From Candidatus Hydrogenedentota bacterium (GTDB lineage: Bacteria > Hydrogenedentota > Hydrogenedentia > Hydrogenedentales > SLHB01), in the NCBI GenBank assembly GCA_034408725.1, contig JAWXCN010000120.1, positions 1-18,505 of the forward strand: a stretch of 18,505 nt of DNA. The letters are read 5' to 3'. Of the stretch, positions 1-18,505 are shown piece after piece. How positions within the stretch are numbered: the stretch's first letter is position 1; each line of letters begins with the position of its first letter. Under the pieces are notes generated by a model that saw only the letters and a program-made list of their open reading frames with translations, ran no database searches and had not been told where the DNA came from. A program made the position numbers and the translations under genes.

Positions 1-99
1 AAAGCCGACAACGTCGCCAACTGCATCCCCCGCGCACCAGCCCCCTTCGCCGGCATGTTCACCTCCTGGTCCCACTGCAACACGGACACCGCCGCATGA
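1..99 (+). CDS. 3' end of a hypothetical protein (partial, runs off the left edge)
   Basis: Open frame from base 1 (KADNVANCIPRAPAPFAGMFTSWSHCNTDTAA*) with GC-rich third positions. Its TGA overlaps the next ATG (ATGA at 96-99). Confidence 0.4.
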   Translation, partial: KADNVANCIPRAPAPFAGMFTSWSHCNTDTAA

Positions 100-148
100 A
101 TATCAGCAACCGCGCCAAGGCGCTCGCGGAGTTTCGTAGCGGAGGTAG

Positions 149-409
149 ATGATGATGACTCTGTGCTCATTACGTCAGTCCTCATTGAAGTGTCAAAGAA
201 CGGGCAGGGTACCGCATCCCCAAGCCGAGGGACAATTCACCAACGCAACACCCCGCATCCGCGCGCAACGGAACCGCCGACCAGGTAGCGCCCGGCTCAT
301 GCCGGGCGGCTTCTTCCACCTCTATCCGTTGTCCCGCGACACGAAATCGGAGACCACCGCCACAACTAACGCCACGACGTTGCACCCCGGAGGCGACTAC
401 GCAAGGTAG
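149..409 (+). CDS. hypothetical protein (86 aa)
   Basis: GGAGG at 141-145 precedes tandem ATGs. ATGA-coupled to an 18-aa ORF at 96-152. No recognisable domain. Confidence 0.3.
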   Translation: MMMTLCSLRQSSLKCQRTGRVPHPQAEGQFTNATPRIRAQRNRRPGSARLMPGGFFHLYPLSRDTKSETTATTNATTLHPGGDYAR

Positions 410-415
410 TCACGC

Positions 416-423
416 GAAACGAA
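416..423. repeat. target site duplication, left copy (GAAACGAA)
   Basis: Identical to 3651-3658. An 8-bp duplication is typical of the IS1595 family. Confidence 0.9.
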
Positions 424-449
424 GGTAAAAATATACTTGACTCATCACA
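424..449 (+). repeat. terminal inverted repeat, distal to the transposase start
   Basis: GGTAAAAATATACTTGACTCATCACA is the exact reverse complement of 3625-3650. Confidence 0.95.
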
Positions 450-669
450 ATGTTGTAATCCATTTACCTCCATCACCAATGTTCATAATCACTCCGGATA
501 ATTGATTTGCCAGGGGGAGCCCTGGGTATTTGAGCATATTTGGGAGTCCTAGAGAATTTTGACATATTACTGATAGGGTATTTAGTTGATTGACGATGAC
601 GGACGTAAGTTGCGACGGAACATTACATTCGTAAGCGGCTTGCTGGTCTGAGCATATCAATGTTTTATA

Positions 670-698
670 TTGACTTTTTCCTTCATCTCCCCTAAAAT
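670..698 (+). promoter_or_regulatory. candidate sigma70 promoter for the 804-1238 gene
   Basis: TTGACT-17 nt-TAAAAT. A second candidate, TTGATC-18 nt-TATAGT, lies at 743-772. Confidence 0.55.
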
Positions 699-803
699 TC
701 CCTCAGCTTGCTCAGTCATGATGTTCCTAACTAACGGAGTGGTTGATCCGAATCTACCTGAGAGTGTATAGTTCAATTGTAACCCCAATCTAAGGGAGGT
801 AAA

Positions 804-1238
804 ATGAACGCGCAGAGCATACGAGACGAGATTGAGAAGATTGAGCGAAAGCTTTCTTTACTTCGGGATTTATTGGCTATTGAGACAGACGAGCCCATTG
901 CTCAGCAAATGCTTTTCACTCAGAAAGAGGATGATTCTACCCAGGGGGAATCTATAGAAGTTGCTACCGCCCGGTATATGGCAGAACGCGGAAATCAGGC
1001 CGTGCTGGCCGATGCTCTCGTAGAATATTTGCAAGGTTTTGGCTTCCTCGCTAACACCAAGGCGGCAACCACTTCAGTTAATACTGCTCTTACAAGACGC
1101 TCAACGCTCTGGGTCAAGAGTTTGGTTCAAGCAAGGGGACGCATGATGAATGCTTATAAAATGCATCCGGACGCTTTCGCTTCGTTCAGAAATGGGCGAA
1201 GCCTTCAATCACTACGTGAGGAATACAAAGACCATTAA
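804..1238 (+). CDS. IS passenger hypothetical protein with an N-terminal coiled coil and a probable winged-helix DNA-binding domain (144 aa)
   Basis: Strong RBS (AAGGGAGGT) before the ATG. Heptad-like N-terminus IRDEIEKIERKLSLLRDLL, then a helix-helix-helix-beta-hairpin pattern (SVNTALTRRSTLWVK...AYKM). The fold is inferred by eye. Confidence 0.7.
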   Translation: MNAQSIRDEIEKIERKLSLLRDLLAIETDEPIAQQMLFTQKEDDSTQGESIEVATARYMAERGNQAVLADALVEYLQGFGFLANTKAATTSVNTALTRRSTLWVKSLVQARGRMMNAYKMHPDAFASFRNGRSLQSLREEYKDH

Positions 1239-1345
1239 TAAATAGGTTGAGCCGCAGCGATTGCAGTCGCTGCGGCTCACGAAATCGTAACCTCCCACGA
1301 CAGGAGATTGACCGATGCACCTAATTGTGGTGCGGTTCGGCCACG
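1237..1345 (-). ncRNA. candidate ~105-nt three-hairpin small RNA
   Basis: Lies between a near-consensus minus-strand promoter (1351-1379) and the 1248-1279 hairpin. The hairpins at 1310-1342 and 1289-1309 contain G-U pairs that form only on the minus strand. Confidence 0.55.
1248..1279. terminator. 13-bp GC-rich hairpin, probable terminator (T-rich tail on the minus strand)
   Basis: TGAGCCGCAGCGA-TTGCAG-TCGCTGCGGCTCA. On the minus strand it is followed by ACCTATTTATT. Confidence 0.65.
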
Positions 1346-1350
1346 TTGTT

Positions 1351-1379
1351 ATTCTAGACCGTGGACCACCGCAAGTCAA
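1351..1379 (-). promoter_or_regulatory. sigma70 promoter, minus strand
   Basis: TTGACT (1379-1374)-17 nt-TAGAAT (1356-1351). Confidence 0.7.
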
Positions 1380-1391
1380 CAAAATTGAAGC

Positions 1392-1421
1392 GGCATGTAG
1401 CTGTTCGAGCAGCTACATGCC
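1392..1421 (+). other. 12-bp perfect hairpin upstream of the 30-aa ORF
   Basis: GGCATGTAGCTG-TTCGAG-CAGCTACATGCC. Confidence 0.7.
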
Positions 1422-1452
1422 TAAACCGCAACGACTTAAGCAGGAGGCTGTC

Positions 1453-1545
1453 ATGCCCACTTATAAGCAATGCGTTGACCGAGATGGCAACATTGGCCAC
1501 TGGGTCACGTTGAAGGACGGTCGTAAAATCTTCATAAAAGACTAA
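1453..1545 (+). CDS. small protein, 30 aa (MPTYKQCVDRDGNIGHWVTLKDGRKIFIKD)
   Basis: AGGAGG RBS at 1442-1447 and ATG at 1453, followed by a terminator-like hairpin. An in-frame upstream ATG at 1315, with CAGGAG, would give a 76-aa form. Confidence 0.6.
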   Translation: MPTYKQCVDRDGNIGHWVTLKDGRKIFIKD

Positions 1546-1551
1546 CGGCCC

Positions 1552-1592
1552 GTAGCGGCGGGCCTTGTGGCCCGTCGCTACTTTCCAATTTT
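1552..1592 (+). terminator. intrinsic terminator-like hairpin
   Basis: GTAGCGGCGGGCC-TTGT-GGCCCGTCGCTAC (13 bp, one G-U) followed by TTTCCAATTTT. Confidence 0.65.
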
Positions 1593-1662
1593 GGGGCGCG
1601 TCTTGGTGTCCACGACGTTTTTTGGAGACGGCTCGTGCGGGGTCCGATCCCCCGGCGCTCCA
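1593..1662 (+). ncRNA. 70-nt tRNA-like RNA resembling an isolated tmRNA tRNA-like domain
   Basis: Acceptor stem GGGGCGC (1593-1599)/GCGCTCC (1655-1661) with G3-U70 and discriminator A1662. T-arm CGGGG-TCCGATC-CCCCG (1638-1654). No canonical D-stem. Central hairpin at 1611-1637. Confidence 0.55.
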
Positions 1663-1669
1663 CTCTTAT

Positions 1670-1945
1670 TCAATCTTTTTTAAGCTTATATGCTTTCAGT
1701 AACTGTGAAGGGTCCACTTTCAGTCGAGCACAGTAGGACCGCACTACGTGCCAACTCATATGCTGGCTTCCCAAGTCCTGCATCCTTACGCGACCAAGTT
1801 CCTTGCCCGCCGCGGAATCGTGTTTGATTGCGTATGTCCGATCTTGATTGGAGCCTTCTACTATTTCGCAACCGTTACTAATTAAAAACGACCTAAATTC
1901 GTTCACCGTTATAGGTTCTAGGCCAGTCCAATCTTCAAATTCCAT
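1670..1945 (-). CDS. HicA-like (dsRBD-fold) putative toxin, 91 aa
   Basis: Alpha-beta-beta-beta-alpha pattern (EFRSFLISNGCEIVEGS...VVRSYCARLKVDP). Translationally coupled (TAATG) to a HicB-like gene. The usual GSH His is not evident. Confidence 0.55.
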   Translation of the reverse strand: MEFEDWTGLEPITVNEFRSFLISNGCEIVEGSNQDRTYAIKHDSAAGKELGRVRMQDLGSQHMSWHVVRSYCARLKVDPSQLLKAYKLKKD

Positions 1946-2295
1946 TAAGCAGGACAGCCAACATACATCTTAGATTTCAAATCCCGGAACAAGCGAGCGA
2001 CAAGTTCATCCGGGGAACCTATCGGTGCCTCCTGTACGGTTTGAGCATCAATGGGCACTGCATGTTCATCGTTAAATTTTTCAGTGTACATATGTGGCGC
2101 TGCCGGGGTGTCCGACAACGGCTGCTTTCCCACTTCGATGTCTAGCTGTACCTGCTCAATTATCGCGAGCTTAAATGCGCTAATTGCATCGAGCCACGTT
2201 CGTGCCTGGACGGCAATGTCATATTCGAGACATTGAGCAACCGTTAGATCGCCATCACTAAATATAAGCACGTTCAGTGAGGGAATTGCGCTCAT
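1945..2295 (-). CDS. HicB-like putative antitoxin, 116 aa
   Basis: LNVLIFSDGDLTVAQCLEYDIAVQARTWLDAISAF matches the HicB N-terminal partial RNase H fold pattern. AAGGAG RBS supports a start at 2295 rather than 2400. Confidence 0.7.
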   Translation of the reverse strand: MSAIPSLNVLIFSDGDLTVAQCLEYDIAVQARTWLDAISAFKLAIIEQVQLDIEVGKQPLSDTPAAPHMYTEKFNDEHAVPIDAQTVQEAPIGSPDELVARLFRDLKSKMYVGCPA

Positions 2296-2467
2296 AAGAC
2301 TCTCCTTTATATACATAAGCCCCGAAAGTAAACATAAAAGACCATAAGAATAACAATTTGTCAAGCAAAAAACAATCCCAATATACTTAATCTTATGCAT
2401 ATCAATGATTTACGCATAATACAAGATATTGGGGTCAACTTTTGCCTACTACACGATATAGTATGGC

Positions 2468-2611
2468 CTACTTTTCCACGGTGGATTTAGTTTTTTTCTC
2501 CAGCTTGGCTTGTTTGCCTGTATCTGACTTTTTGACAGCAAATAGTCGCTTTGCAACATCCTCGAAGCGGTCAAATGGCGTGGGCTTAGACTTCTTTTTT
2601 GCCTTTTCCAC
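2468..2611 (-). CDS. small basic protein immediately downstream of the transposase, 47 aa (not in the ORF track)
   Basis: GAAAGG then GTG, 17 nt after the transposase stop: MEKAKKKSKPTPFDRFEDVAKRLFAVKKSDTGKQAKLEKKTKSTVEK. Confidence 0.55.
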   Translation of the reverse strand: MEKAKKKSKPTPFDRFEDVAKRLFAVKKSDTGKQAKLEKKTKSTVEK

Positions 2612-2628
2612 GTTTCTGCCTTTCAAAC

Positions 2629-3579
2629 TCAATGGATCGCTTTTGGGGTCTCTCCAGTGAGTTTAGCATAGGTCAGGCGCTTTCCGGCAACTGTGCTCAC
2701 AACGGATTGAAAACGCTCCGCGTCATTCAGCTTGCGATTGTTGAAGCGGTGGGCCTGCTCATCCAAGTAGCGAAACAAGTGAAAAGGCTCAACTGATACG
2801 TAAGTCCCTTTAATAGAACGCTTTAGGCACGACCAGAAGTTTTCCATGCAATTTGTGTGAATGTTGCCGTCCACGTATCGGATTGCATGATCGATAACCT
2901 TGTGATCGTACTCATCGGCGAGGCTCTCGTATGACGCAAGGGCGTCTGTGTGGATTTCTGAGCCTTTTTCCACATGCTTGCGTACTTCGGGGTCAAGTTT
3001 GCTGCGCTTCACGCTCTCGATAACCCGAGTGCGCACCTTGCCCTCGGTGCGGGATAGTGCGCCCATGACAATCACTTTACCGGATGAGCCGCGCCCACCC
3101 TTTTTGAGCTTGGCTTTTTTCTTCTTATGCATGAAGCGGGCTTTACCGCCGATGAGGGTTTCGTCCACTTCCACGATACCGGTTAATTTTTGGAATGACT
3201 CGTCCTGCATTGCAAGGCGAATGCGGTGGAGCATGAACCATGCACTTTTTTGAGTGACGCCCAAGTCCCGCGCAACCTCATAGGACGATACGCCATTCTT
3301 GCAGTTCGCAACCAGCCACATAGCCGCAAGCCACTTTTCGAGGGCAATGGGTGAATCTTCAAATATCGTCCCGCGCTTGACCGAGAATTGCTTACGGCAA
3401 GTCTTACACTGGTACATGCGACGGGATGCTATACGGCCAATCGCTTTTGACTGGCAGTGAGGGCACTCGACACCATCAGGCCAACGCAGACTTGCAACAA
3501 ACGAATCGCATACTTCTGCATTTGAGAAGTAGCGCATTGCCTGTATAAGTGTCTGTGGCGTAAAGTTTTCCGTGCTCAT
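2629..3579 (-). CDS. IS1595-family (ISXO2-like) DDE transposase, 316 aa
   Basis: N-terminal Zn ribbon CPHC...CKTC, HTH region (SSYEVARDLGVTQKSAW), and catalytic motifs VEVDET, IHTD and HTNCMENFWS...YLDE..RFN. Confidence 0.96.
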   Translation of the reverse strand: MSTENFTPQTLIQAMRYFSNAEVCDSFVASLRWPDGVECPHCQSKAIGRIASRRMYQCKTCRKQFSVKRGTIFEDSPIALEKWLAAMWLVANCKNGVSSYEVARDLGVTQKSAWFMLHRIRLAMQDESFQKLTGIVEVDETLIGGKARFMHKKKKAKLKKGGRGSSGKVIVMGALSRTEGKVRTRVIESVKRSKLDPEVRKHVEKGSEIHTDALASYESLADEYDHKVIDHAIRYVDGNIHTNCMENFWSCLKRSIKGTYVSVEPFHLFRYLDEQAHRFNNRKLNDAERFQSVVSTVAGKRLTYAKLTGETPKAIH

Positions 3580-3624
3580 CGCGAGTACCCCTTGATTTAA
3601 CTGAGTCCATTATATCAAGAATAC

Positions 3625-3650
3625 TGTGATGAGTCAAGTATATTTTTACC
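3625..3650 (-). repeat. terminal inverted repeat, proximal to the transposase start
   Basis: TGTGATGAGTCAAGTATATTTTTACC, the reverse complement of 424-449. Confidence 0.95.
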
Positions 3651-3658
3651 GAAACGAA
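3651..3658. repeat. target site duplication, right copy (GAAACGAA)
   Basis: Identical to 416-423. Confidence 0.9.
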
Positions 3659-3953
3659 GGGTATTTGATTGGCAAATAACGAGATTAACTTCCTGAGCGT
3701 CACGTATTAAGTTCTGTAGCCAAGCGAGCCCACATATACGCGTGCTCTAGCTCGCGAGGTTATGACCGTTCTCTCGACTGCGGATACACACTAAGACGGA
3801 TTGGCTGCGGGCGTGAACCAAATCAAATACAGAACGCGAAGTCAATTGGAGCTTATAAAGGCAAACTGCATTCCATTTGACGCTGCGTTGTGCAATAGTG
3901 CAGCCTCACTTTTGCATAATCCGGACCTAAGCCCACGATTGAGGACTCTCCTT

Positions 3954-4877
3954 ATGTTAGATTCCACCCGACTGCGAGACGTTCAAAGGGCTACAGACAC
4001 ACTTAAGGGAATTCTCGCTGGAATTTCGTGTGACTATGAGTTGTCGGACGTTGAAATCGGACGGCTGTACGACTGGCTCCATATTCATGCTCACCTATTG
4101 AATATCGAACCCTTTCAATCTGCAAAGAAATTGATCGAATCGGCCTTGGCCGATTCAGTTATCACTGACGATGAACGCGAAGACCTCTTGGTTTTTTGCC
4201 AAAAATGGAGCGATTTCCAATCTGAAGAATTCAATGTTCAAACCGTAGCCATGCGGCATCTACATGGATTTTTAGAGGGATTATCGGCAGATGGAGATGT
4301 TTCTGACTCCGAAATTTTAGATTTCCATGATTGGCTGCATTCATTCGAAGACCTTCACGAAACCTGGCCTTTTTCCAATGCTGTAAAACTGATCAAGAAA
4401 ATCCTAAAGGACAACAAAGTTTCGACGGCCGAAAGAGCTAGAATGTTGGATTTCTGTCTAGATTTTCGCCCAGAGCTTGCCCTCGACAAATCACCGGAAA
4501 CGTACGATCCCGTTTCCGAAGGCTACATGATTACGAATGCCCCTGTGCTGAAGACCGTGAAATCAATTTTCGATGCGGACCAACCCATTGAATTCAGAGA
4601 ACGTATTTTCTGCTTCACCGGGCAAGCAAGGTACGGTAAGCGAAAAGATCTCGAAGCGGTGGTGCAGGAAGTCGGTGGGCGGACACACCCTAGGATTGTT
4701 GCGGATCTTGACTATCTCGTAGTTGGCGCCCTCAGCCAGCCATGTTGGGCTTACGAAGTGTACGGTCGAAAAATCGAGAATGTGATGGAACTTCGCAAGC
4801 GTGGTTGCCAGATTTGGATCATTCACGAGGATAGATTCTTGAATGCATTGCAGGACCTCGCAAGGACTCTTCGGTAA
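3954..4877 (+). CDS. BRCT-domain protein with two tandem helical (TerB-like) repeats, 307 aa
   Basis: C-terminal FCFTG...R.DLEAVVQEVGG...LDYLVVG...W....YGRKIE...IIHE is a BRCT pattern. Two ~70-aa repeats LxGxLxGxSxD...EI...DWL...PF precede it. GAGGA RBS supports the ATG at 3954. Confidence 0.8.
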   Translation: MLDSTRLRDVQRATDTLKGILAGISCDYELSDVEIGRLYDWLHIHAHLLNIEPFQSAKKLIESALADSVITDDEREDLLVFCQKWSDFQSEEFNVQTVAMRHLHGFLEGLSADGDVSDSEILDFHDWLHSFEDLHETWPFSNAVKLIKKILKDNKVSTAERARMLDFCLDFRPELALDKSPETYDPVSEGYMITNAPVLKTVKSIFDADQPIEFRERIFCFTGQARYGKRKDLEAVVQEVGGRTHPRIVADLDYLVVGALSQPCWAYEVYGRKIENVMELRKRGCQIWIIHEDRFLNALQDLARTLR

Positions 4878-4923
4878 ATCTATGTACCAGACCGACCCCA
4901 ATAAAGGATAGATATATAGTCAT

Positions 4924-6090
4924 ATGAACGATGCTTTGTTTGAACAACTATTATATGAGGAGGAGAGCACCACACTCGATTTTAAGCAAGATCAATATCC
5001 TTTCGCCAAAGAAAACGAAGATGAAAAATCTGAACTTCTCAAAGACATTCTTGGATTCGCGAACGCTTGGAGACGAACTGAAGCGTACATTCTAATTGGA
5101 GTCGAAGACGTTCGAGGCGGGCGGGCCGATGTTCTTGGCATTCCGAACAATGCACATCTCGCCGACCATTCGCTGCAACAGTTTGTATATAATTTAACGA
5201 ATCGGCCAATTCATTTTCACTATGAAGCTTTTTGCTTCGAGGGGAAGCAGGTAGGCGTCATTAGTATTGAAGTGCAAGAGCGACCAATCTATCTCTTAAG
5301 GAATTACGGCAGGCTTAAAAAGGGTGAGGTATACATTCGTCGCGGCAGTTCGATCGATCCATCAAAACCAGCCACGCCCGATGAGATTATGCGAATGGGA
5401 ATGTCGGCCGCTCCAACAACCAAACCAACGCTGACAGTAGAGTTTGGCGCATTAGATCGCTATAGAATCCTTGGCAGACATTATCAATTCTCGGCCACTT
5501 TGTGCCAGATGCCCGATAGCAAGACTTTGCCCAAACTCAGAGCAGACAACATCTTTACAGGTTTGAGTAATCCAGTCAATACCAATTATTACGAGGAGTT
5601 TGCACAATTTATTTTTTGCACTCTGTTCTTCAAAAAATTGTACTTAGTTGTCAGTAATACCGGAGAGTGCGCCGCCACGGACGTTTATCTTGAAATTTCA
5701 ATTCCAAAAAATAAAGATTTTGGTGTAATTGTTCCCTCGGAACTGCCAAGACCGCCCAGAAAAAGCCTGGATATCTTTAATACACCAATTACGGCGTCGA
5801 TATCTCATTTTCAAAACCCGGGGGATGTGCAGATTATTGCAAATGCAGATGAATCTAAAATCGAGATAGATTGCGGAAATATGCAGCCTGGACGAAAAGT
5901 TTGGACAGAAGGCATTTTTTTGTGGATTCGTCAGGACGGCGAAATCGAGGTAAAAGGCCACATTTTTGCGGCGAACCTTTCCTCTCCAGTGGAATTCTCC
6001 CTTTTCATCAATGCAACGATTACCGAAACGATGATGACCGTAAACGAGCTGCTCTCCCGTGATGAGCCGACTGGGGCGGAGTGGGACTAG
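4924..6090 (+). CDS. Schlafen/AlbA_2-domain protein with a C-terminal beta-rich (Ig-like) domain, 388 aa
   Basis: EESTTLDFK...ELLKDILGFANA...YILIGVED...YIRRGS is the AlbA_2/Schlafen core. LVVSNTGECAATDVYLEISIP and the following strands resemble an Ig/CARDB-like sandwich. Confidence 0.85.
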   Translation: MNDALFEQLLYEEESTTLDFKQDQYPFAKENEDEKSELLKDILGFANAWRRTEAYILIGVEDVRGGRADVLGIPNNAHLADHSLQQFVYNLTNRPIHFHYEAFCFEGKQVGVISIEVQERPIYLLRNYGRLKKGEVYIRRGSSIDPSKPATPDEIMRMGMSAAPTTKPTLTVEFGALDRYRILGRHYQFSATLCQMPDSKTLPKLRADNIFTGLSNPVNTNYYEEFAQFIFCTLFFKKLYLVVSNTGECAATDVYLEISIPKNKDFGVIVPSELPRPPRKSLDIFNTPITASISHFQNPGDVQIIANADESKIEIDCGNMQPGRKVWTEGIFLWIRQDGEIEVKGHIFAANLSSPVEFSLFINATITETMMTVNELLSRDEPTGAEWD

Positions 6091-6289
6091 CGAAGACATA
6101 CGGTATCGAATTGGTAGAAACTAAGCTAATTTCATGGAAGGCAATGGCGCATGGATACACTCTTTGCCATACAAATACGCTCAAAGCATGATGACTACAG
6201 CGACGACGATTACAGAGCCAATGACTGGGCAGTCTCCTTCAAATGACTATAACGTAAAGTTTCAGCGTATTCTTAGCTAGCGAAGCCGA

Positions 6290-7303
6290 CTATCTAATAC
6301 TATCGGTCCTTAATGAATCCAACCATCCTCGATCTACGTTCACCCAGCATATTCCGTCGACCGTTTTTTGAAAGGTAATACCAATTTTAGCGAGAAAGCT
6401 GCGGAGAATTGTTACGATTTCATCCAGAGCCGGCTCGGTTTCGCGAAGACCAGTATCAATCGTCCTTTCCAACTGCACCCTAATGCCATTCCAGTATTCG
6501 GAGAAAATTTGGCTAAAGAACGGGCTTTGCAGAGCTATCGTTTCAGTACGGGGAACTTCTTCATTTCCGTAACGACAGGCGCTGTCTCGACCAAGCGGCT
6601 CAAGAATATCTCGATACATAATATTTGTCAATTGATTCCAGGTATCGGATTTCGATATAGCGCCCAAACTCGCATTGGATATAGTTCTGTACAACCCGCC
6701 GAAGGCATTCTCCAGCCTTATATCCACTTTATCCCCATACATTATGCGGACAGTCGTCGCGTCATCTGCGTTGTCAACAAGAGGTACTGTCGCAAGAATT
6801 TCTGACTTTATTCTTCCAACAACGTATTCGTCGTGCATTTTAGAACTTAACACAAACAGGTCGGCCGTGCATAAGTCTGTTCCATCCCGAGATGGCTGGA
6901 TGTAGCCGCGCCGATCCCATATTTCAGAGTAGTGCCAAACGTGCAAAAACTCCTCCAGTACCGCAGATACAGCATCGCTCGTATGGTAGCGAGCGACGCT
7001 TAAGCCCTGCACTATACTCTCTGCGATTACTATGAAGCAGAATAGTTCGCCGTATAGCTCCAATGGAATCGTTATCGCCTGTGCGGCGTAGCTGCCAGGA
7101 GCGTAGGGATTGGCACGAGTAGTGGCGAGCTCTAATAGCGCGTTCACCGTTTCGGCGACCTGATGGTCCGGTACGACTATTATTTTCGTAAGTCTCTGCA
7201 GCTTAACCAATCCACAAAGCTCACCGAGCAGAGTCTTGAAAGCTTGTATTTTCATTGGGTCAATTCGACAACAAACTTCCACTGTGAGCTCACTATTCCC
7301 CAT
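6290..7303 (-). CDS. hypothetical protein with a zincin-like EExxH motif, 337 aa
   Basis: Long ORF. AVLEEFLHVWHY with a downstream DEY resembles an HExxH...E metallopeptidase site with an H-to-E change. Confidence 0.65.
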   Translation of the reverse strand: MGNSELTVEVCCRIDPMKIQAFKTLLGELCGLVKLQRLTKIIVVPDHQVAETVNALLELATTRANPYAPGSYAAQAITIPLELYGELFCFIVIAESIVQGLSVARYHTSDAVSAVLEEFLHVWHYSEIWDRRGYIQPSRDGTDLCTADLFVLSSKMHDEYVVGRIKSEILATVPLVDNADDATTVRIMYGDKVDIRLENAFGGLYRTISNASLGAISKSDTWNQLTNIMYRDILEPLGRDSACRYGNEEVPRTETIALQSPFFSQIFSEYWNGIRVQLERTIDTGLRETEPALDEIVTILRSFLAKIGITFQKTVDGICWVNVDRGWLDSLRTDSIR

Positions 7304-7356
7304 CCTTTGATTCCACCTTGTCGGTAAATTTTAGTTGATACAGGGTAGCGCACGCT

Positions 7357-7689
7357 TTAATTCACAGGCACCCATTCCCCCACAAACGGAAACGTAGTCT
7401 CGAACTCCACGCGACGATTCAGTCTTCGGTTGGCCTCGCTATCGTGTGGGAGGGCAGGGTCGGATTCGCCCCAGGGATTTGTCGTGAGCCGCTCGCCGTC
7501 GATCCCGTGTTCGACCATGTACCGCTTGACGGTATCTGCGCGGCGTTCCGCCAATGCCAGATTGGCTTGCGCCGGTCCCGCGTCGCACGTGTGGCCGTGA
7601 ATCACCACGGTAACGTCCGGCTGCTCTTTCAGCGCCGCGACCAACGCATCGATGGCCGCCGTGCCCTTCGGATGTACAGTTTCCCTCGG
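7357..7689 (-). pseudogene. 5'-truncated OmpA-like peptidoglycan-binding domain (duplicate of 8783-9098)
   Basis: HGHTC...NLALAERRADTV...GES.P...NRRVEF. It lacks the first strand and any signal peptide, and is in frame with 7690-8703 beyond a single TGA. Confidence 0.7.
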
Positions 7690-8703
7690 TCATTTCTGTG
7701 GCTGCGTTCCCTGCTCGACGGTTTCACTCGTGCCACCTTCTTTCACCGTGAAAGCCACGGGCCTTTGCAACCTATAGTCAACGATGTGAGTGCCTGTTGG
7801 ATAATTGCCGGCAAAATTCTCTTTTGCTTCCAGGATCAGAGGCTCATCCGAACTGCTCGCATAGCTTGTGTACACGATGCGGGTCGTGCCATCGCCCACA
7901 TACACTAGAGTCCTCATCTCTTCTCCAAGGCCTCGGTAACACCCTTTTAATGCGATCACGCCATCTGCCAGAATACCTGACGTTTCAAACTCACCAATAC
8001 CCTGTGCGACGGCTCTTCTGACCAGATGTGTCTCGTTATCAAGGGCTATGTTCCACTGGCATCGCACTACGGACTCGGCCGGAAAACGCCCGGCGGCGAG
8101 TATGCGGGTTTGCCCATCTTCCAAGGGGGTTTCTGATACCACACGGTCAATGTAGGCAGCAAAGCCTCTTCCAGTGGCCAATACGATTTGGTACAACTGG
8201 TAGTGTTGGAGTGGGTCCGAAGGCTTATAGCGTAACACTACGTCCTCTATTTCCCCCTCACCAACGATCCCGTCTTGCGGTGAAATTTCGTACGACTTTA
8301 ACGAATAACGCGTTCCAGCGGTATTACTGTCCCAAAATTGAATGGTTCGCGGGCGTCGCGAAATAATTGCGTGGCCTGCCGCCTCCGCGAATGCGGACAT
8401 ATTAGCGTTTCTTCTATCATAAACCGCTGGATACTTCGGCAAGTTGGTTCCCGGATCCATTTCGGCCTTGTACGCTAACGTGTCCGCTTTCCGGGTGACG
8501 ATAACGTTTTCCTTCACTATCTCGGAATCCGGGCTGGTCTTCGTCATTCGCCATACGACGACTGCCTCAAACGTACAATGTTCAAGTACGGCTTTGTCCT
8601 TTGCTCGCAAATCCTCCAATATATCGCTGTGCGCCCGTCCGCAAATTGCCAGATTAAAAGCAAAGAGTATTATCAGCCAGCAGTTTGCGCGTCGTATGAC
8701 CAT
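7690..8703 (-). CDS. secreted hypothetical protein, 337 aa
   Basis: GGGAGA RBS. Sec-type signal MVIRRANCWLIILFAFNLAICGRAHS, followed by a beta-rich mature region. Confidence 0.75.
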   Translation of the reverse strand: MVIRRANCWLIILFAFNLAICGRAHSDILEDLRAKDKAVLEHCTFEAVVVWRMTKTSPDSEIVKENVIVTRKADTLAYKAEMDPGTNLPKYPAVYDRRNANMSAFAEAAGHAIISRRPRTIQFWDSNTAGTRYSLKSYEISPQDGIVGEGEIEDVVLRYKPSDPLQHYQLYQIVLATGRGFAAYIDRVVSETPLEDGQTRILAAGRFPAESVVRCQWNIALDNETHLVRRAVAQGIGEFETSGILADGVIALKGCYRGLGEEMRTLVYVGDGTTRIVYTSYASSSDEPLILEAKENFAGNYPTGTHIVDYRLQRPVAFTVKEGGTSETVEQGTQPQK

Positions 8704-9326
8704 CAATCTCTCCCAATTTTTCCCGCACTCGCTACCATTCCCCAGCGCTGCCTCCAGCGGCCTTGGTGTGCCTCCCGTCTATTTAATGCACCGGCGCCCC
8801 ATTCCCCTACAAACGGAAACGTCGTCTCGAACTCCACGCGACGATTCAGTCTTCGGTTGGCCTCGCTGTCGTTTGGCAGGGCAGGGTCTGATTCGCCGCA
8901 GGAGTTTATTGTGAGCCGCTTGCCGTTGATCCGGTTTTCGACCATGTACCGCTTGACGGCATCCGCGCGGCGTTGCGCCAATTCCAGATTGGCTTGCGCC
9001 GGGCCCAGGTCGCATGTGTGGCTGTGAATTACCACGGTGACATCCCGCTGTTCTTTCAGCGCCGCGACCAACTCATTGATGACCGCCATTCCCTTCGGCG
9101 TTAGATCGGTTTTGTTGAATTCGAACACAACGATGTCGAATATCGGCTTGGAACAGGCAAGCGCCATGGGTTGCGCCGGTTCCGCCGCGTTCGACGCCGC
9201 CACTGCCGGCGAATCCACCCCCTGCGACGAACGTGCCGGTTCGAGCTGAGTTCGCGTTGCGCAACCCACCGCCGCCAATGCTACGCACGCGATCAAACAA
9301 ATCGGCACTCGTACACAGGTCGTCAC
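8703..9326 (-). CDS. OmpA-family lipoprotein, 207 aa (C-terminus extended by a frameshift)
   Basis: CAGGAG RBS before GTG at 9326. Lipobox LAAVG-C, an Ala/Pro linker, then an OmpA-like domain VFEFNKTDL...RRADAV...NRRVEF. Confidence 0.8.
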   Translation of the reverse strand: MTTCVRVPICLIACVALAAVGCATRTQLEPARSSQGVDSPAVAASNAAEPAQPMALACSKPIFDIVVFEFNKTDLTPKGMAVINELVAALKEQRDVTVVIHSHTCDLGPAQANLELAQRRADAVKRYMVENRINGKRLTINSCGESDPALPNDSEANRRLNRRVEFETTFPFVGEWGAGALNRREAHQGRWRQRWGMVASAGKIGRD

Positions 9327-9390
9327 GAAGGTCTCCTGGACACACACACTTATCATACGCGCCCGCACCCGCAAGTTGCTGCGTTGTCGC

Positions 9391-9520
9391 CCCAATTTCC
9401 GTTGCGGCCGGTCTCCCAACTCCCGTTGCGGCCGGTCTTCCAACTTCCGTTGTGGCCGGTCTTCCAACTTCCGTTGTGGCCGGTCTCACGACCGCGCCAC
9501 GCCGCCGACCGAAGGTCTCC
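9391..9520. repeat. 4 x 24-bp tandem repeat merging into a REP-like element
   Basis: Units at 9391, 9415, 9439 and 9463 (consensus YCCAACTTCCGTTGYGGCCGGTCT), then CACGACCGCGCCAC...CCGACCGAAGGTCTCC. Confidence 0.85.
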
Positions 9521-9696
9521 TTCCCCGCTCACCGCACTACTTTCTGGCGATTCTGTCACCGCTTGTCAACCAAATACCGGTTAAATCGCGAAGGGAAGTT
9601 ACACGCACGCTGAGGGACTGGTGCGCCTACTGCAACGCGTTGGGCCAGTTAATAACGGGATCGATGCTGGAAATGCATAGCGCATTGGACTGGATG

Positions 9697-9780
9697 CGAA
9701 GCCGGAGCTTCGAGCACTGCATTACCAAGCCGGAGCTTGGTAACGAGGTAAAACAGATTCCTCACTCCGTTCGGAATGAC
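9697..9780. repeat. REP-like palindromes
   Basis: CGAAGC-CGGA-GCTTCG (9697-9712), TTACCAAGC-CGGA-GCTTGGTAA (9722-9743) and AGATTCCTCACTCCGTTCGGAATGAC (9755-9780). Confidence 0.65.
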
Positions 9781-9900
9781 AGTGAGGTGCAAACCACGGA
9801 GAACACGTGAAAGTGAAGAAGTGAGGAAGGCAGGAAGTGAGAAACGATATGTCTGCGAAACCCGAGACCCTAGACCCGAGCCCCGTCAATCAGGGCGCAA

Positions 9901-10347
9901 TCACTCCACCACTTGCACGTAATCCCCCACCGCGAAGGCGCCACCCTGAATGACCTGTCCGTGTACGCCGCCGCGCATATCGGGTTTGAGCGCGGCCTGG
10001 AGTCCGTCGAAGAGTTGGTCCATGAGGCCGCACGGTTCGGTTTCGCCGTGGATGTGTACTTCGACGCCGCCCATGCGCACCACGAGCCCGATGAGGTTCG
10101 AGAGATCAATGCCTTCAACGAGCACATTCGCGCGGCGTGTGTGCCACGGCAGGTCCGCATCGAGTTCCTGCATGGCGTCGTCCCATTGTTCGCGGGAAAT
10201 GAAGGTGATTCCGCGTTGCGCCTTCACGGCGACATCGCCATCGATGCCCGCGCCAAATGCCGCGGTCGCGTGCGGAATCTCGCGCATCGGGCCAAGTTTT
10301 TCCGTGCGCACGGCAATCGCCGCAACACGGCCGGTGGTGGAACTCAT
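9901..10347 (-). CDS. MOSC domain-containing protein, 148 aa
   Basis: GIDGD...R.IT...RRANVLVEGIDL...TEPCGLM...RGGV...VIQGG.F.VGD with the conserved Cys. GGAGGG RBS. Confidence 0.88.
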   Translation of the reverse strand: MSSTTGRVAAIAVRTEKLGPMREIPHATAAFGAGIDGDVAVKAQRGITFISREQWDDAMQELDADLPWHTRRANVLVEGIDLSNLIGLVVRMGGVEVHIHGETEPCGLMDQLFDGLQAALKPDMRGGVHGQVIQGGAFAVGDYVQVVE

Positions 10348-10441
10348 GAGATGCCCTCCGGGAAGTTTTTATGAACTGCGGAAACCGGCTACGAACTTAC
10401 GCCTACGCACCAGTATGCGCACGTCCATGGAAATCCGGATT

Positions 10442-10473
10442 CAATCCAAAATCCAAAATCTAAAATCCAAAAT
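10442..10473. repeat. heptamer tandem repeat (AAAATCY)
   Basis: CAATCCAAAATCCAAAATCTAAAATCCAAAAT immediately after the kinase stop codon. Confidence 0.8.
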
Positions 10474-10476
10474 TCC

Positions 10477-12804
10477 CTACTGCACGGCGCGCAACGCGGT
10501 GATCAATTCGCGGACCGTTTGGAACCGGTCTTCAGGTTTCTTGTCGATGCATTTCATCACGATGTCATTCAATGCCGGCGGCACGCCTTCGACTTTCTGG
10601 CTCGGCGGCGGCGGGGTTTCTTTCAGTTGACGTTCAATCACGTCTTGCCCCATAAACACGGTTTCACCCGAAAGGCATTCGTACATGACCAGACCCATCG
10701 AATAGATGTCGCTGCGCGCGTCCGCCTCTTTGCCCAGCACCTGCTCGGGCGCCATGTAGCTCGGCGTGCCCATGACGACGCCCGTGCGCGTCATGCGCGA
10801 ATCCTCCGCCTTGGCGAGTCCAAAGTCGGTCAGCTTGATGAGTCCGCCTTTGGCAATGAGAATGTTATCGGGTTTGATGTCGCGGTGTACGATGCCAGCT
10901 TCGTGGATCGCCGCAAGCGCGTTGCACGCCTGGACAATGACGTTGATCGTTTCGCGCGCCTTGAGACCGCCTTTGCTCGTCAGGTATTTGTGCAGGCTCG
11001 GCCCATCGACGTATTCCATCGCGATGTACGCCTTGCCGACGCTCGCGCTGATGTCGTAGATCGCGATGATGTTCGGGTGCGATATTTTCGCAGCCGTTCG
11101 CGCCTCGCGCACAAACCGTTGGCGGAACTCTTCGGAGCTGTCGACAAGGTTGCCGAGAAACTTCAACGCCACGGGCCGGTCCAACTGCGAGTCGCGCGCG
11201 AGATACACCACGCCCATCCCGCCGCGGCCAAGCTCTTGCTCGAGCACGTAGCGGCCGCCAAGATTCGACTCGACCGATTCCATCACCTGCGTGGCGACCG
11301 TTGCCGCCGCGCCTTGTCCCATGCCGGGTTGCGGCGTGTACACCGTGGCTGCGCCAGCAGGCGCGGCGTGCGCCATGGAAATGCGGGATGAAATGTTGGA
11401 GAGACGCGTGGACACGTCCTTGAAGCCGACGTTGACGGTCCTTATTTTCAACAGGATGTCGCGCGATTCGTCGAGCTTGCCCAACTGTTCAAGCGCAAGC
11501 GCCCACATGTAGAAGTATTCCGTGTTGCCGGTATCGACGCGTTTGCCCAAGAGATGGTTCTCGAGCGCGGCGGCGCAATGCGCGTAGTCGTGCAGCTCGT
11601 AGAAACAACGGCCAAGCAGGGCGCGGGACTGCTCGAAGTTCGCGTGGTTCTCCGGAATCTTTTGCAGCGCTTTTATCGCCGGCTCGAATCGCGCCGCATG
11701 CGCGTACGCCAGCCCGGCGCGATAAAACTCGCCCGCGCGCTCGAAACATTCACCCGCGCGCACCGCGTCCGACGCGCGCGCAAACATCTCGCCCGCGCTC
11801 ATGAAATCGCCCGCCTGCGCGAATGCTGTCGCCGCTTCGCGCCAGTTGCCTTTGGCCTGATGGAATCGCCCCGCGATCTGCGCGGCTTCCTTTTCTTTTC
11901 CCGCCTGCCGTTTGCACGCCGCGGCTTCTTCAAGCTTGCCTGCCAGCAGACAAACTTCCCCCGCGCGATCGAAATTACCAAGTTCCTTGTACAACGCGGC
12001 AGCGTGATCGTAGCGCTTCGCGCTTTCAAATTGGCCCGCGAGATATGGCAACAACGCTTTGCGTTGCTCCGCGCTTATCTTGGATTTGCCGGGTTCAGTA
12101 TCCAGCATCCGCGCGCACTCATCGGCGGAAACGAGCTGTGCCTCCGCCGTGTCCTTCGGGCTCTCGAAATAACTCTTGTATGCCTCCGTCGCCGGGCCGT
12201 AGCTGCCCGCCTGCGCGTAACAACTCGCCGCCTTCGCGAGGAAGCCGGACCGTTCGTAGGCTTTCGCCGCGTCAACGAACTTGCCCTTGTCCGCGAAGAA
12301 GCTGGCCGCGTTGCCGTAGTCTCCTTCTTTCATCAGGATTTTTGCGGCTTTGAGCGTATTGCCCATCTTCGCCATTTCCATCGCGCTGCGTTTGCGGTCG
12401 CCGGCTTTGCCGAACCATTTGGCGGCTTCCTTGTGCCGGTTTATCGAAGCGTACACCTCGCCCATGCGCTGGTAGTTGCGGGCTTTCTTCAACGGCGCAA
12501 TGGTCGCGTCAATGTCGCGCGCAGCCATCAAAGTTTGCTGGAAATCGGTGGGGCCGCCCTGGTTCTGCAATGCGCGCACGTCCGCGGAATCAGCAAGGGT
12601 GTCGCGGCGAAACACGTTGCGCAGCATCTTGCGCGCAGTTTTAGCGATGTAGAACAGGAAATAAATCAGAAAGAGGGTGATGACAATCTTGATGAGCGGA
12701 AAAACAATGGCAGGCGCGGGAACGGCGGTGATGTTGTCTCCGAGAATGCGAATTAAAATCATTTCGCCAAGGAAAACATTCCAATACCAGTAGACGATGC
12801 CCAT
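10477..12804 (-). CDS. membrane-anchored Hanks-type Ser/Thr protein kinase with TPR-like repeats and a C-terminal kinase domain
   Basis: GRGGMGVVY, VALK, HRDIKPDN, DFG and GTPSYMAPE motifs. N-terminal TM segment (IVFPLIKIVITLFLIYFLFYIA) and Ala-rich helical repeats. The start is uncertain (12804 or 12876). Confidence 0.92.
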   Translation of the reverse strand: MGIVYWYWNVFLGEMILIRILGDNITAVPAPAIVFPLIKIVITLFLIYFLFYIAKTARKMLRNVFRRDTLADSADVRALQNQGGPTDFQQTLMAARDIDATIAPLKKARNYQRMGEVYASINRHKEAAKWFGKAGDRKRSAMEMAKMGNTLKAAKILMKEGDYGNAASFFADKGKFVDAAKAYERSGFLAKAASCYAQAGSYGPATEAYKSYFESPKDTAEAQLVSADECARMLDTEPGKSKISAEQRKALLPYLAGQFESAKRYDHAAALYKELGNFDRAGEVCLLAGKLEEAAACKRQAGKEKEAAQIAGRFHQAKGNWREAATAFAQAGDFMSAGEMFARASDAVRAGECFERAGEFYRAGLAYAHAARFEPAIKALQKIPENHANFEQSRALLGRCFYELHDYAHCAAALENHLLGKRVDTGNTEYFYMWALALEQLGKLDESRDILLKIRTVNVGFKDVSTRLSNISSRISMAHAAPAGAATVYTPQPGMGQGAAATVATQVMESVESNLGGRYVLEQELGRGGMGVVYLARDSQLDRPVALKFLGNLVDSSEEFRQRFVREARTAAKISHPNIIAIYDISASVGKAYIAMEYVDGPSLHKYLTSKGGLKARETINVIVQACNALAAIHEAGIVHRDIKPDNILIAKGGLIKLTDFGLAKAEDSRMTRTGVVMGTPSYMAPEQVLGKEADARSDIYSMGLVMYECLSGETVFMGQDVIERQLKETPPPPSQKVEGVPPALNDIVMKCIDKKPEDRFQTVRELITALRAVQ

Positions 12805-12883
12805 CAATTCATCCCCATCGCGCACCCCGCCAAGGTTCGTGGGGGCAATGATACTACGCGAAGGGATCGATCTCACAATCCCC

Positions 12884-13100
12884 GGGGACTGTCACCCGTA
12901 GCGCAGGGGGCTGTCACCCGCGCCAAGAAGACGACTGCTATTCAAATGACGTCTCGCGCGGGTGGCTGTCCCCGAACCTTCAAACCTTCAGATATCGTAA
13001 TCGAATTTTCTACTTGTCTGCGATGGATCGGGGACAGCCACCCCGCGCAGGAAAGTCTTTAAGAATAGGAAAGGGGTTGTGTGCGCGGGTGACAGTCCCC
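12884..13100. repeat. cluster of five REP-like units GGGGACWGYCACCCGCGC in mixed orientation
   Basis: Forward copies at 12884, 12906 and 13030. Reverse copies at 12956-12973 and 13082-13100. Confidence 0.85.
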
Positions 13101-13126
13101 TATGTTTCGTGCGTGCGTCTTCATTG

Positions 13127-13286
13127 GTGCTCGTGCTCGTCACCCGTCCTCGTGATTACTTGGGCCTGTATCAATAGGACTTACAGGCAACGAGTGTACG
13201 ATGACGCGCGCGAAAGGGATTCGCGTTGTCCATTGTCAACTGTCCATTTTCAATTGTTCGATTACGATTACGAGCACGAGCACGAC
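13127..13286. repeat. inverted hexamer tracts (GTGCTC / GAGCAC, GATTAC) around a heptamer tract
   Basis: GTGCTCGTGCTCGT near 13127-13140, TTGTCCATTGTCAACTGTCCATTTTCAATTGT at 13226-13257 and GATTACGATTACGAGCACGAGCACGAC at 13260-13286. Confidence 0.7.
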
Positions 13287-13315
13287 TGAAGGCTCGCGCC
13301 AGAGGGTAGGAGTGC

Positions 13316-15010
13316 TTATTGCGCGATACCCAACAACGTCTCGAGCATTCTGTCCGCAACTGTCATCAGCCTCGCGGAGGCTTCGTACGCGCGTTGGAAG
13401 AGCATGAGGCTGGTGACTTCTTCGTCGAGATTCACGCCGGAGACTTCCTGGCGGCGTTCGTCGAGGTTTTGCACGAACTGTTGCTCGACTTGAACGATAT
13501 CGTTAATCGCGCGCGCGTCGACGCCAAGACCCGCGACGGTCGATTGGTAGTAATCACTGATCGTCGCCGCGCCGCTGTCCAGCACGAGCGCGGAGCGCAG
13601 CGCGGCCATTTGCAATGCCGCGCCGTTGTCGCCGGTGTTGAGGATGTCGTCGCTGAAGGACGACGTGATCCAGCCGGGGTTGTCTTGCAGGTCTTCGTTG
13701 ACCGCGATGGACCGCGCGTCGCGGCCAGTGAAGAAACCGTTTACACCGAGTGCAGTCAATGCGCCACTTGAATCATTTGCAAACGAGAAGGTGAAACCGG
13801 CGTTCGCGCCAAAGTTGATGGTGTCGCCGGAGACGGATGCGGAGAAGTTGCCCACGCCGTTGAGTGCGGTGGCGAGATCATTGAGTGTGGTCGCCGCGGT
13901 GATATTGATAGTAGTGGTCGTCGGCACGCCGGCGCTGTCATACACCACAAGGTCGAACGTGCCGGGCGTGATCGGAAATGGAAGGCCCGCGGAAACCAGT
14001 GCCGTGCCCGCGCCGTTCACAGCGTTCGAGCTCGAGAGCGTGCCGGACAGGTTTATCGTGCCGTTGCCCTGGTTGTGGATCGCGTTCAACTGCTGGATTA
14101 ATGCGGCGGCGATGGTGTCGATTTCCGCGTCAAGTTCAGGAATGACGGTGTCGCGAATTTGCAACGCACCGTAGACTTCGCCGCCGGTCACGTCTACCAG
14201 CGAGTTATCGTCCGCGAACCGCAACTCGACTAGGTCATTGCGTTCGGTATCGAGCGCGGGGTTGCGGAACGCAATGATATCGCGCGCGCCGGATGCGTCA
14301 ACCAAAGTGGCGGAACCGATCTGGATGATCGTCTGCCCCGCGCCGTCCGTGCGGACGTTGATCTCGACTAGCCGCGACAATTCGTCCACCAGCACACCGC
14401 GCTGATCGCGCAACTGGCTGGCGTTCGATCCGCCTCCTTCGGACAACCGGATCTCGCGGTTCAGCACCGCGATGCGGTCGGCAATGGAATTGATCTCCGG
14501 CACGAGGTTGCGCACTTCCTCGTTCGCGTTCGTGCGCAACTGATCGAACCGTTGAATGAGGCCATTCAGGCTGCCGGCCATGGCCTGGCCCTCGGACAGC
14601 AACGCCTCGCGGACCGGAAGCGATTCGACGTTGTTCGAGAAATCGTTCAGCGCGTCGAAGAACCGGTCCAGCCGCGTCCCAAACCCGTTTTCGCTGGGTT
14701 CGAGGAACACGTCTTCGATCAGATTGTAATACTGCGCCTGCACCTCGGAACTGCCCAAACCCTGCACCTGCCGGCTGAACGCTTCGTCCAAAAACTCGTC
14801 GCGGATGCGTTCGATGCCCGCAATTCCCACGCCGCGGCCCAACGGGCCAAAAGGCGTCAGCGAGGGGAACCGTTCCTCCAGCAATGCCCGTTGCCGCGAA
14901 TACCCGGGGGTGTTCACGTTGGCAATGTTGTTGCCGGTGACGTTGAGTTGGTATTGCGCCGCGGACAACCCCGACCGCGCAATGTCCAACGCGCTAAACA
15001 AACTTCCCAC
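13316..15010 (-). CDS. flgK: flagellar hook-associated protein 1, 564 aa
   Basis: LDIARSGL.AAQYQLNVTGNNIANVNTPGYSRQ at the N-terminus and SGVNLDEEVTSLMLFQRAYEASAR at the C-terminus. GGAGG RBS before GTG at 15010. Confidence 0.95.
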   Translation of the reverse strand: MGSLFSALDIARSGLSAAQYQLNVTGNNIANVNTPGYSRQRALLEERFPSLTPFGPLGRGVGIAGIERIRDEFLDEAFSRQVQGLGSSEVQAQYYNLIEDVFLEPSENGFGTRLDRFFDALNDFSNNVESLPVREALLSEGQAMAGSLNGLIQRFDQLRTNANEEVRNLVPEINSIADRIAVLNREIRLSEGGGSNASQLRDQRGVLVDELSRLVEINVRTDGAGQTIIQIGSATLVDASGARDIIAFRNPALDTERNDLVELRFADDNSLVDVTGGEVYGALQIRDTVIPELDAEIDTIAAALIQQLNAIHNQGNGTINLSGTLSSSNAVNGAGTALVSAGLPFPITPGTFDLVVYDSAGVPTTTTINITAATTLNDLATALNGVGNFSASVSGDTINFGANAGFTFSFANDSSGALTALGVNGFFTGRDARSIAVNEDLQDNPGWITSSFSDDILNTGDNGAALQMAALRSALVLDSGAATISDYYQSTVAGLGVDARAINDIVQVEQQFVQNLDERRQEVSGVNLDEEVTSLMLFQRAYEASARLMTVADRMLETLLGIAQ

Positions 15011-15100
15011 TCGATTCCTCCAAGTTCCGGCCAGTGCGCCGCGGGTCCGGATGCGCGGGGGGCTAACCACCCGCGCAGACCGCGTCGTGGCCAACAGGGA

Positions 15101-15116
15101 TGCAACCTGCATACCC
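15101..15116 (-). promoter_or_regulatory. candidate sigma54 (-24/-12) promoter for flgK
   Basis: GGGTATGCAGGTTGCA has GG-N10-GC spacing and resembles TGGCACG-N4-TTGCW. It lies about 90 bp upstream of the start. Confidence 0.55.
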
Positions 15117-15286
15117 ATTATCGGCGGAAGGGAGGGTGGGCTTTAGACTGGGCGCAAGAGACGCCCGCAACCAGTGACGGAATAAGAGCTTGCGCCATCG
15201 GCAACACTTTTCCCGAAGAAGCGTCTTGACCCTTGCGACAAAGTGACAATGGGAAATCCATGCCGCAGCGAGGAAAAGAAGTCCCG

Positions 15287-18504: not shown

Positions 18505-18505
18505 G

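Follow-up and report, generated by a model that had tools for sequence, protein, structure and literature searches.

The contig JAWXCN010000120.1 of a Candidatus Hydrogenedentota bacterium (assembly GCA_034408725.1) carries, in the stretch of 18,505 nucleotides analyzed here (positions 1 to 18,505 of the forward strand, termed the window in the following), an intact transposon of the IS1595 family. The cargo of this transposon includes a 70-nt element at 1593-1662 (+) that can be drawn as a miniature transfer RNA (tRNA) bearing the marks of alanine identity. Judged by its letters, the element is tentatively interpreted here, with confidence slightly short of even, as a real or recently crippled transposon-borne tRNA look-alike of the alanine type. 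By analogy, its best explanation is that it belongs to the same loose kind as the TLD-only (tRNA-like domain only) or anticodon-less alanine-type RNAs of phages.

The element begins with the 5′ strand of the acceptor stem, GGGGCGC (1593-1599, +; read from the sequence and by RNAfold), and ends with the 3′ strand GCGCTCC and the discriminator A1662 (1655-1662, +). The stem comprises seven pairs, of which the sole G-U pair is G1595-T1659, i.e., G3-U70, and A1662 takes the position of A73. The 3′ strand abuts the T arm CGGGG-TCCGATC-CCCCG (1638-1654, +), a 5-bp stem closed by the 7-nt loop TCCGATC with C at position 55. An unpaired 11-nt linker GTCTTGGTGTC (1600-1610, +), with GG at 1605-1606, occupies the place of the D arm and is followed by a central hairpin of 27 nt with ten pairs and a 2-nt bulge (1611-1637, +; likewise read from the sequence and by RNAfold), whose loop, if taken as the 7-nt loop TTTTGGA, would place UUG at the anticodon. 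A1662 is followed by CTC, so that CCA is not encoded. An earlier note on this DNA had claimed the acceptor/T-stem geometry, the G3-U70 pair, the discriminator A and the lack of CCA, and every letter was confirmed on re-reading 1300-2000. All 12 acceptor and T-stem pairs are intact, which counts in favor of a real molecule. The element thus has the 7-bp acceptor stem, the 5-bp T stem with 7-nt loop and the discriminator of a tRNA; a cloverleaf with a D arm, a 5-bp anticodon stem and a 7-nt loop is missing. From the acceptor 5′ strand to the T arm there are 38 nt, with no room for the tag reading frame and pseudoknots of a transfer-messenger RNA (tmRNA).

The minimum free energy (MFE) structure of the 70-mer calculated with RNAfold is exactly this drawing of acceptor stem, linker, hairpin and T arm (-29.9 kcal/mol). 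The acceptor pairs have a probability of 0.95-0.98 in the isolated RNA or with the 3′ flank, and those of the central hairpin a probability of about 0.4. The GC content of the element is 69%, compared with 47% for the transposon and 57% for the genome, and the element sits exactly in an intergenic gap of the transposon cargo; both the local enrichment and the position argue for a discrete feature.

A G3-U70 pair in a 12-bp coaxial stack of acceptor and T stem suffices for charging by bacterial alanyl-tRNA synthetase (AlaRS), as known from classical work with E. coli. The element has the same 12-bp coaxial stack with G3-U70 as the acceptor/T-arm minihelices of tRNA-Ala, which have been described as AlaRS substrates (PMC11392972). 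Those minihelices are laboratory constructs, whereas the element is a natural sequence with an extra body of 38 nt.

Viral RNAs with the same acceptor stem offer the closest comparison. A pattern that was looser than the others used, requiring only this stem plus T.CGA..C and leaving free position 55, the T-stem pairing, position 74 and the position at -1, yielded 23 viral sites of 67-80 nt (L034-L056). ARAGORN called seven of them as tRNA-Ala, one as an amber-type tRNA and one as something else with different borders, and left 14 uncalled. The loop started with TTCGA in 23/23, C74 was present in 21/23 and T at -1 in 13/23; the T-stem halves read as complementary but were not scored. The element agrees with this set at A73, C74 and T at -1, of which C74 and T at -1 were not selected for by the pattern, and this agreement speaks against an accidental drawing. 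The viral RNA L040 resembles the element most directly, being also 70 nt long and having its T stem and CTC trailer in common with it. Its Rfam picture is similar as well, with mascRNA as the best match (22.8 bits) and no full match to a tRNA or tmRNA model; failure of these models is therefore normal for the viral alanine-type class. Several of the uncalled RNAs carry the tmRNA 5′ signature, of which L042 and L054 lie in tRNA clusters of large phages and L043 and L045 stand alone, and others with unrelated bodies (L035, L037, L040, L044, L050 and more) are found in phage replication/recombination modules. L042 and L054 are TLD-only mini-tmRNAs. Loops with CTAG or TTAG occur in L035, L039, L045 and L050, which may be odd suppressor-type tRNAs. 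As a whole, viral RNAs with GGGGCGC/GCGCTCC and A73 seem to be under-annotated.

The location inside an IS1595-family element, which had been proposed from the letters alone, was borne out by the transposase, the inverted repeats and the target-site duplication. The unit spans 424-3650 (3,227 bp) and is intact. Its terminal inverted repeats, the left one of 31 nt (424-454) and the right one at 3620-3650, are 94% complementary to each other, and it is flanked by a perfect 8-bp target-site duplication, GAAACGAA, at 416-423 with an identical copy at 3651-3658. The transposase of 316 amino acids (2629-3579, -) matches the Pfam families DDE_Tnp_IS1595 (3.6e-41) and Zn_ribbon_IS1595 (4.1e-12) and the NCBIfam family transpos_IS1595 (1.3e-57).

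The strongest rival explanation is coincidence, which we regard as quite possible: the 124-nt spacer between two convergent genes that holds the element would consist of GC-rich hairpins ending or stabilizing both transcripts, and the tRNA drawing, G3-U70 included, would be accidental. To assess the chance rate, both strands were scanned for a strict motif, i.e., an acceptor stem of 7 bp containing no more than one G-U pair, abutting five Watson-Crick T-stem pairs, with the loop T.CRA.. and G53-C61. The 5.17-Mb genome contained 25 matches, namely 24 tRNAs called by ARAGORN and the element, a result that favors a real element. Further figures point the same way: at island-like composition a single strict match occurred in 40 Mb, and G3-U70 together with A73 was present in 7/405 strict-stem matches, true tRNA-Ala genes included. 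Multiplication of the island-composition rate by the alanine marks and the intergenic position gives about 1e-3 per genome, a value obtained by arithmetic and not by a run; even so, a survey of very many windows should still produce about one accident of this kind. By chance, an alanine-marked drawing is expected in roughly one of every hundred genomes with this GC content (0.67 × about 0.01), and the chance rate of the strict motif per 18.5-kb window is about 0.002. Within one window the motif thus greatly exceeds the chance expectation; across the whole genome or a large scan it does not.

Weighing against our reading, and in part directly for coincidence, are the results given from here to the end of the account of transcription signals. 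Six first-order Markov-shuffled genomes held 1, 2, 0, 1, 0 and 0 strict matches (mean 0.67), so that one extra match per genome is expected by chance. The fold stability of the 70-mer is ordinary (z = -0.66), with 45 of 200 dinucleotide shuffles folding as well. In the T loop, C55 alters the most conserved position: the sequence T54-T55-C56-R57-A58 is broken, while TTC[GA]A is found in 45/45 host tRNAs and U55 in 23/23 of the viral RNAs with the same acceptor stem. With C55 the element may be weakened or already dead. The interior of the element, too, is unlike that of any of the 23 viral RNAs (best global score 0, shuffle maximum -0.9 ± 2.2).

The tRNA and tmRNA models, suggested earlier as a check, did not call the element. 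ARAGORN reported 0 genes in the window, no Rfam family reached its gathering score for the element, and RF00005 was absent from the results at E ≤ 10, both with 401 nt and with 83 nt as the searched sequence. The best row of the tRNA/tmRNA clan in the 83-nt search was a partial match to cyano_tmRNA with 9.1 bits. A whole-genome run of the tmRNA model returned 15 matches, i.e., the host tmRNA (197.6 bits), three tRNA-Ala genes (44.3, 32.9 and 24.3 bits) and 11 weaker sites, and the element was absent from them. The best Rfam match of the element, at E ≤ 10 in the 83-nt search, was mascRNA-menRNA (RF01684), full length over 1-56, with 20.2 bits and an E-value of 0.024, below the gathering score of 42.5. 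Because the true tRNAs of the genome score 15-25 bits on the same model, this match says only that the element is tRNA-shaped; judged from the E-values at 19.1 and 25.4 bits, a score of 20.2 corresponds to roughly 0.4-0.7 expected matches per genome, in keeping with coincidence. The mascRNA and menRNA are small RNAs of tRNA-like shape that are released by cleavage of long non-coding RNAs in vertebrates. Like the element, mascRNA has an acceptor stem and a T arm with reduced D and anticodon parts, a likeness by which no relationship is implied.

The element has no homologue detectable by sequence in the searches made. DNA similarity revealed no second copy or half copy in the window or the genome, and the DNA was present in 0/60 relatives; plasmids yielded none, and the matches in phages were confined to real tRNAs, over the length of the T arm, and to a single hairpin attributed to chance (Brevundimonas phage Domovoi). 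Homologues had been anticipated in related IS1595 elements, but none of the 24 loci with related transposases (73% to 29% identity), all of which were examined, has this cargo or a tRNA-like site inside the transposon. What these loci have in common is only the transposase and, in one of them (L003), the inverted repeats. RNA-pattern scans covered viral contigs and metagenomes, the metagenome pattern being the exact T arm, a requirement that diverged relatives would fail. Two patterns, the exact C55 T arm plus GCTCCA, gave 0 matches in the viral contigs. The exact C55 T-arm pattern found four metagenome sites, two in coding DNA and two (L029 and L030) in pieces resembling tmRNA 3′ ends, with another acceptor stem. 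Four additional DNA runs of microbial-mat samples gave contigs identical over the region, with neither a variant nor an empty site, and none of the runs listed for this sequence was an RNA run.

The two tmRNA-like pieces are observations in their own right. L030 contains a sequence of about 40 nt resembling a tmRNA 3′ end twice, about 4.5 kb apart (2919-3146 and 7443-7465); the first copy lies within a match resembling a permuted tmRNA (24.8 bits), and the second has the loop TCCGATC. The arrangement in L030 suggests that an island has integrated into a two-piece tmRNA gene. L029 has a similar tmRNA 3′-end-like piece at 843-906 with the same C55 loop.

With respect to transcription, a terminator-like hairpin (13-pair stem, 1552-1564/1569-1581) with an interrupted U tract, TTTCCAATTTT, occupies 1552-1592 (+), directly 5′ of the element on the same strand, and is present in both the MFE and the centroid fold. 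The U-rich leader described before is therefore a U-rich stretch that indeed exists, but it is the U tract of the hairpin at 1552-1581. Hairpin and U tract are terminator-like by eye; the terminator scan did not list that site. When the upstream hairpin is included in the folding, the acceptor-pair probability falls to about 0.25 and the MFE structure switches to other pairings. No sigma-70-like promoter was found for the element. On the minus strand, a terminator-like site at 1564-1547 places the complement of the element in the 3′ untranslated region of the convergent gene, in line with the coincidence reading. Against coincidence, the terminator scan flagged no site inside 1593-1662 on either strand, and hence none of the element's own hairpins. 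T6 follows the hairpin 1601-1617, whose pairing is limited to 4+3 interrupted pairs.

If the element is a real look-alike, a plus-strand transcript could arise from an unseen promoter or by read-through of the weak upstream terminator from the transcript of a 30-aa open reading frame (ORF); read-through is plausible because the upstream U tract is interrupted. RNase P would then cut before G1593, and the CTC trailer would be trimmed and CCA added. In at least three tRNA genes of the host, CCA is not encoded (read by eye), which means that the host must be capable of CCA addition. (Elsewhere in the host genome, at 71300-71394 of contig C35, ARAGORN reported a 95-nt 'tRNA-???' with the four-letter anticodon (tcta).) AlaRS could charge the RNA via G3-U70 and A73, and the RNA, charged or uncharged, may serve as a decoy titrating factors that handle tRNA-Ala or tmRNA; decoy action alone is possible because there is no normal decoding arm. 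Alternatively, it might be a target or decoy for the protein encoded next to it.

This neighbor is a convergent gene of 91 aa (1670-1945, -), whose stop codon (1672-1670) lies 7 nt past A1662. The earlier note had called it HicA-like, and the predicted fold agrees. In a comparison of the AlphaFold model (pLDDT 83.5) by VIA-align, the top four matches were HicA chains, namely 1whz (Z 7.8), 6hpb_A (Z 7.0), 6g26_F (Z 6.2) and 5yrz_B (Z 5.2), with whole chains covered, and the next row had Z 4.0. Foldseek E-values were weak (0.47-1.4), and Pfam (including HicA_toxin), NCBIfam and PADLOC gave no match. Because HicA chains are the top structural matches while these databases give none, the structure model supports a HicA-like assignment at the fold level only. 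HMMER found a single small relative among 1.84 billion representatives (33% identity, E-value 5.9e-8), a word-based protein search returned only the protein itself, and the gene was found in 0/134 other genomes of the phylum. A gene of 116 aa (1945-2295, -) shares one base with the start of the 91-aa gene and is presumed to be its antitoxin partner by position only; a protein search with the 116/151-aa protein returned only itself, and the fold model is unusable (pLDDT 43.6). Reversed hicBA gene orders have been described (PMC10865869). HicA toxins have a catalytic histidine, and both tmRNA and mRNAs are reported targets of cleavage by E. coli HicA (PMC11594946), which is why the HicA-fold neighbor is an attractive partner. 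A module of three parts can be imagined, in which the hicBA-like pair is joined by an alanine-chargeable, non-decoding look-alike that would tune the HicA-fold RNase, as its decoy or favored substrate, or block tmRNA-SmpB rescue in the host; we consider this unlikely.

A second rival holds that the element is a true TLD-only tmRNA derivative that binds SmpB and blocks trans-translation in the host. RNAs of this kind, suggested before for the element, do exist on phages: the mycobacteriophage DS6A has a TLD-only ('CDS-less') tmRNA, which is little more than a TLD, and a molecule similar to it has been described as a strong inhibitor of tmRNA, perhaps through titration of SmpB (Hudson, Lau and Williams 2014, PMC4131195). 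The two RNAs are alike in being short (83 nt in DS6A, 70 nt here), in having a G3-U70/A73 acceptor stem stacked on the T arm, an unpaired GG linker where a D arm would be and one capped helix instead of tag and pseudoknots, in lacking an encoded CCA, in trailers starting with CT, in residing on mobile DNA and in receiving no call from ARAGORN. The layout of the element (a 7-bp stem, 5 nt, GG, 4 nt and a helix up to the T arm) is moreover that of the tmRNA consensus, but the tmRNA model gives no score for it. As a positive control, the DS6A RNA reached 34.7 bits (E-value 4e-13) on this model, whereas the element stayed below 9.1 bits in the equivalent short search; because it fails a test that DS6A passes, we do not file the element as a tmRNA derivative, and the specific relationship to tmRNA proposed earlier is not supported. 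The acceptor and T-arm sequences of the element also differ from those of the host tmRNA and tRNA-Ala genes, the consensus junction GGAC before the T arm is missing (read by eye), and the T loop is TCCGATC with its C55, compared with TTCGATT in DS6A. The settings differ as well, the DS6A RNA lying on a phage beside replication genes and the element on an IS1595 transposon beside a HicA-fold gene. A tmRNA derivative like that of DS6A is accordingly regarded here as very improbable.

Less probable still is a compact decoding tRNA without a D arm, which would read with the loop UUUUGGA (anticodon UUG), receive alanine via G3-U70 and cause mistranslation or recoding. A reading of the loop with U33, UUG and purine 37 is possible, and the UUG anticodon had been pointed out in the earlier note for a degenerate tRNA. 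Compact tRNAs also occur in phages: the tRNA-Ala L048 and L049, both called by ARAGORN, have 70 nt, very short D arms and 7-bp anticodon stems, and L041 is a compact amber-type tRNA, likewise called, with the same acceptor stem. The element, however, received no such call and matched RF00005 not even at E ≤ 10; its predicted loop closes to 5 nt, the stem is bulged, there is no spacer between hairpin and T arm, and C55 counts against decoding as well.

Two further candidates were rejected. An old decayed pseudogene is improbable, given that the 22 drawn pairs are all intact and the stems show no disrupted pair. The remnant of an integration site in a tRNA or tmRNA gene was rejected as the principal reading and is improbable as well, since the element has both acceptor strands and lacks a repeat partner, i.e., a second copy of either half; nor is there a match to the host tmRNA or tRNA-Ala genes.

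The transposon carries an orphan cargo of about 2 kb, consisting of an ORF of 144 aa, the 30-aa ORF, the tRNA-like element and the hicBA-like pair. The 144-aa ORF (804-1238, +) has no match reaching a curated cut-off and thus no family. The 30-aa ORF (1453-1545, +) lies just 5′ of the element, is preceded by a strong AGGAGG at 1442-1447 and has no tblastn match in phages or plasmids. Near-perfect palindromes are located 3′ of the 144-aa ORF (1248-1279, 16+16 nt) and just 5′ of the ribosome-binding site of the 30-aa ORF (1392-1421, 15+15 nt), and at each of them the scan placed a terminator-like site on the minus strand. A lysine-rich ORF of 54 aa from the ORF list (2468-2632, -) follows the transposase. 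The related insertion sequence L003, whose transposase is 73% identical and whose inverted repeats are the same, has another cargo of two genes (216 aa and 97 aa). At 6835-6978 (+) it encodes a lysine-rich ORF of 47 aa that resembles, by eye only, the 54-aa ORF. The position of the lysine-rich ORF is directly after the transposase here, and after the cargo, beside the far inverted repeat, in L003.

The low-GC stretch runs past the transposon to about 7500. The genes at 3801-7303 of the window likely form a defence island. They encode a Schlafen/AlbA_2 protein of 388 aa that matches the PADLOC candidate PDC-S50 (3.4e-18) and a protein of 358 aa, the C-terminal about 100 residues of which weakly match models of DNA polymerase III epsilon and DNA ligase (LigA). 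A direct repeat of 203 nt (91% identical) is located at 7371-7573 and 8798-9000 of the window, with the copies 1,427 nt apart.

If the drawing is a coincidence, it still provides a calibration, as a perfect acceptor/T-arm drawing would then be met about once in each bacterial genome if the alanine marks are left aside, and tRNA-like drawings of this type need data on conservation or expression before they are believed. If our preferred reading of the element as a transposon-borne alanine-type look-alike is true, non-decoding alanine-type tRNA mimics would not be confined to phages but would also be cargo of simple transposons, and it would become possible to test directly whether tRNA/tmRNA mimicry is linked to toxin-antitoxin or defence modules. 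Should the three-part module prove true as well, the element would be the first RNA of its kind to reside on an insertion sequence instead of a phage.

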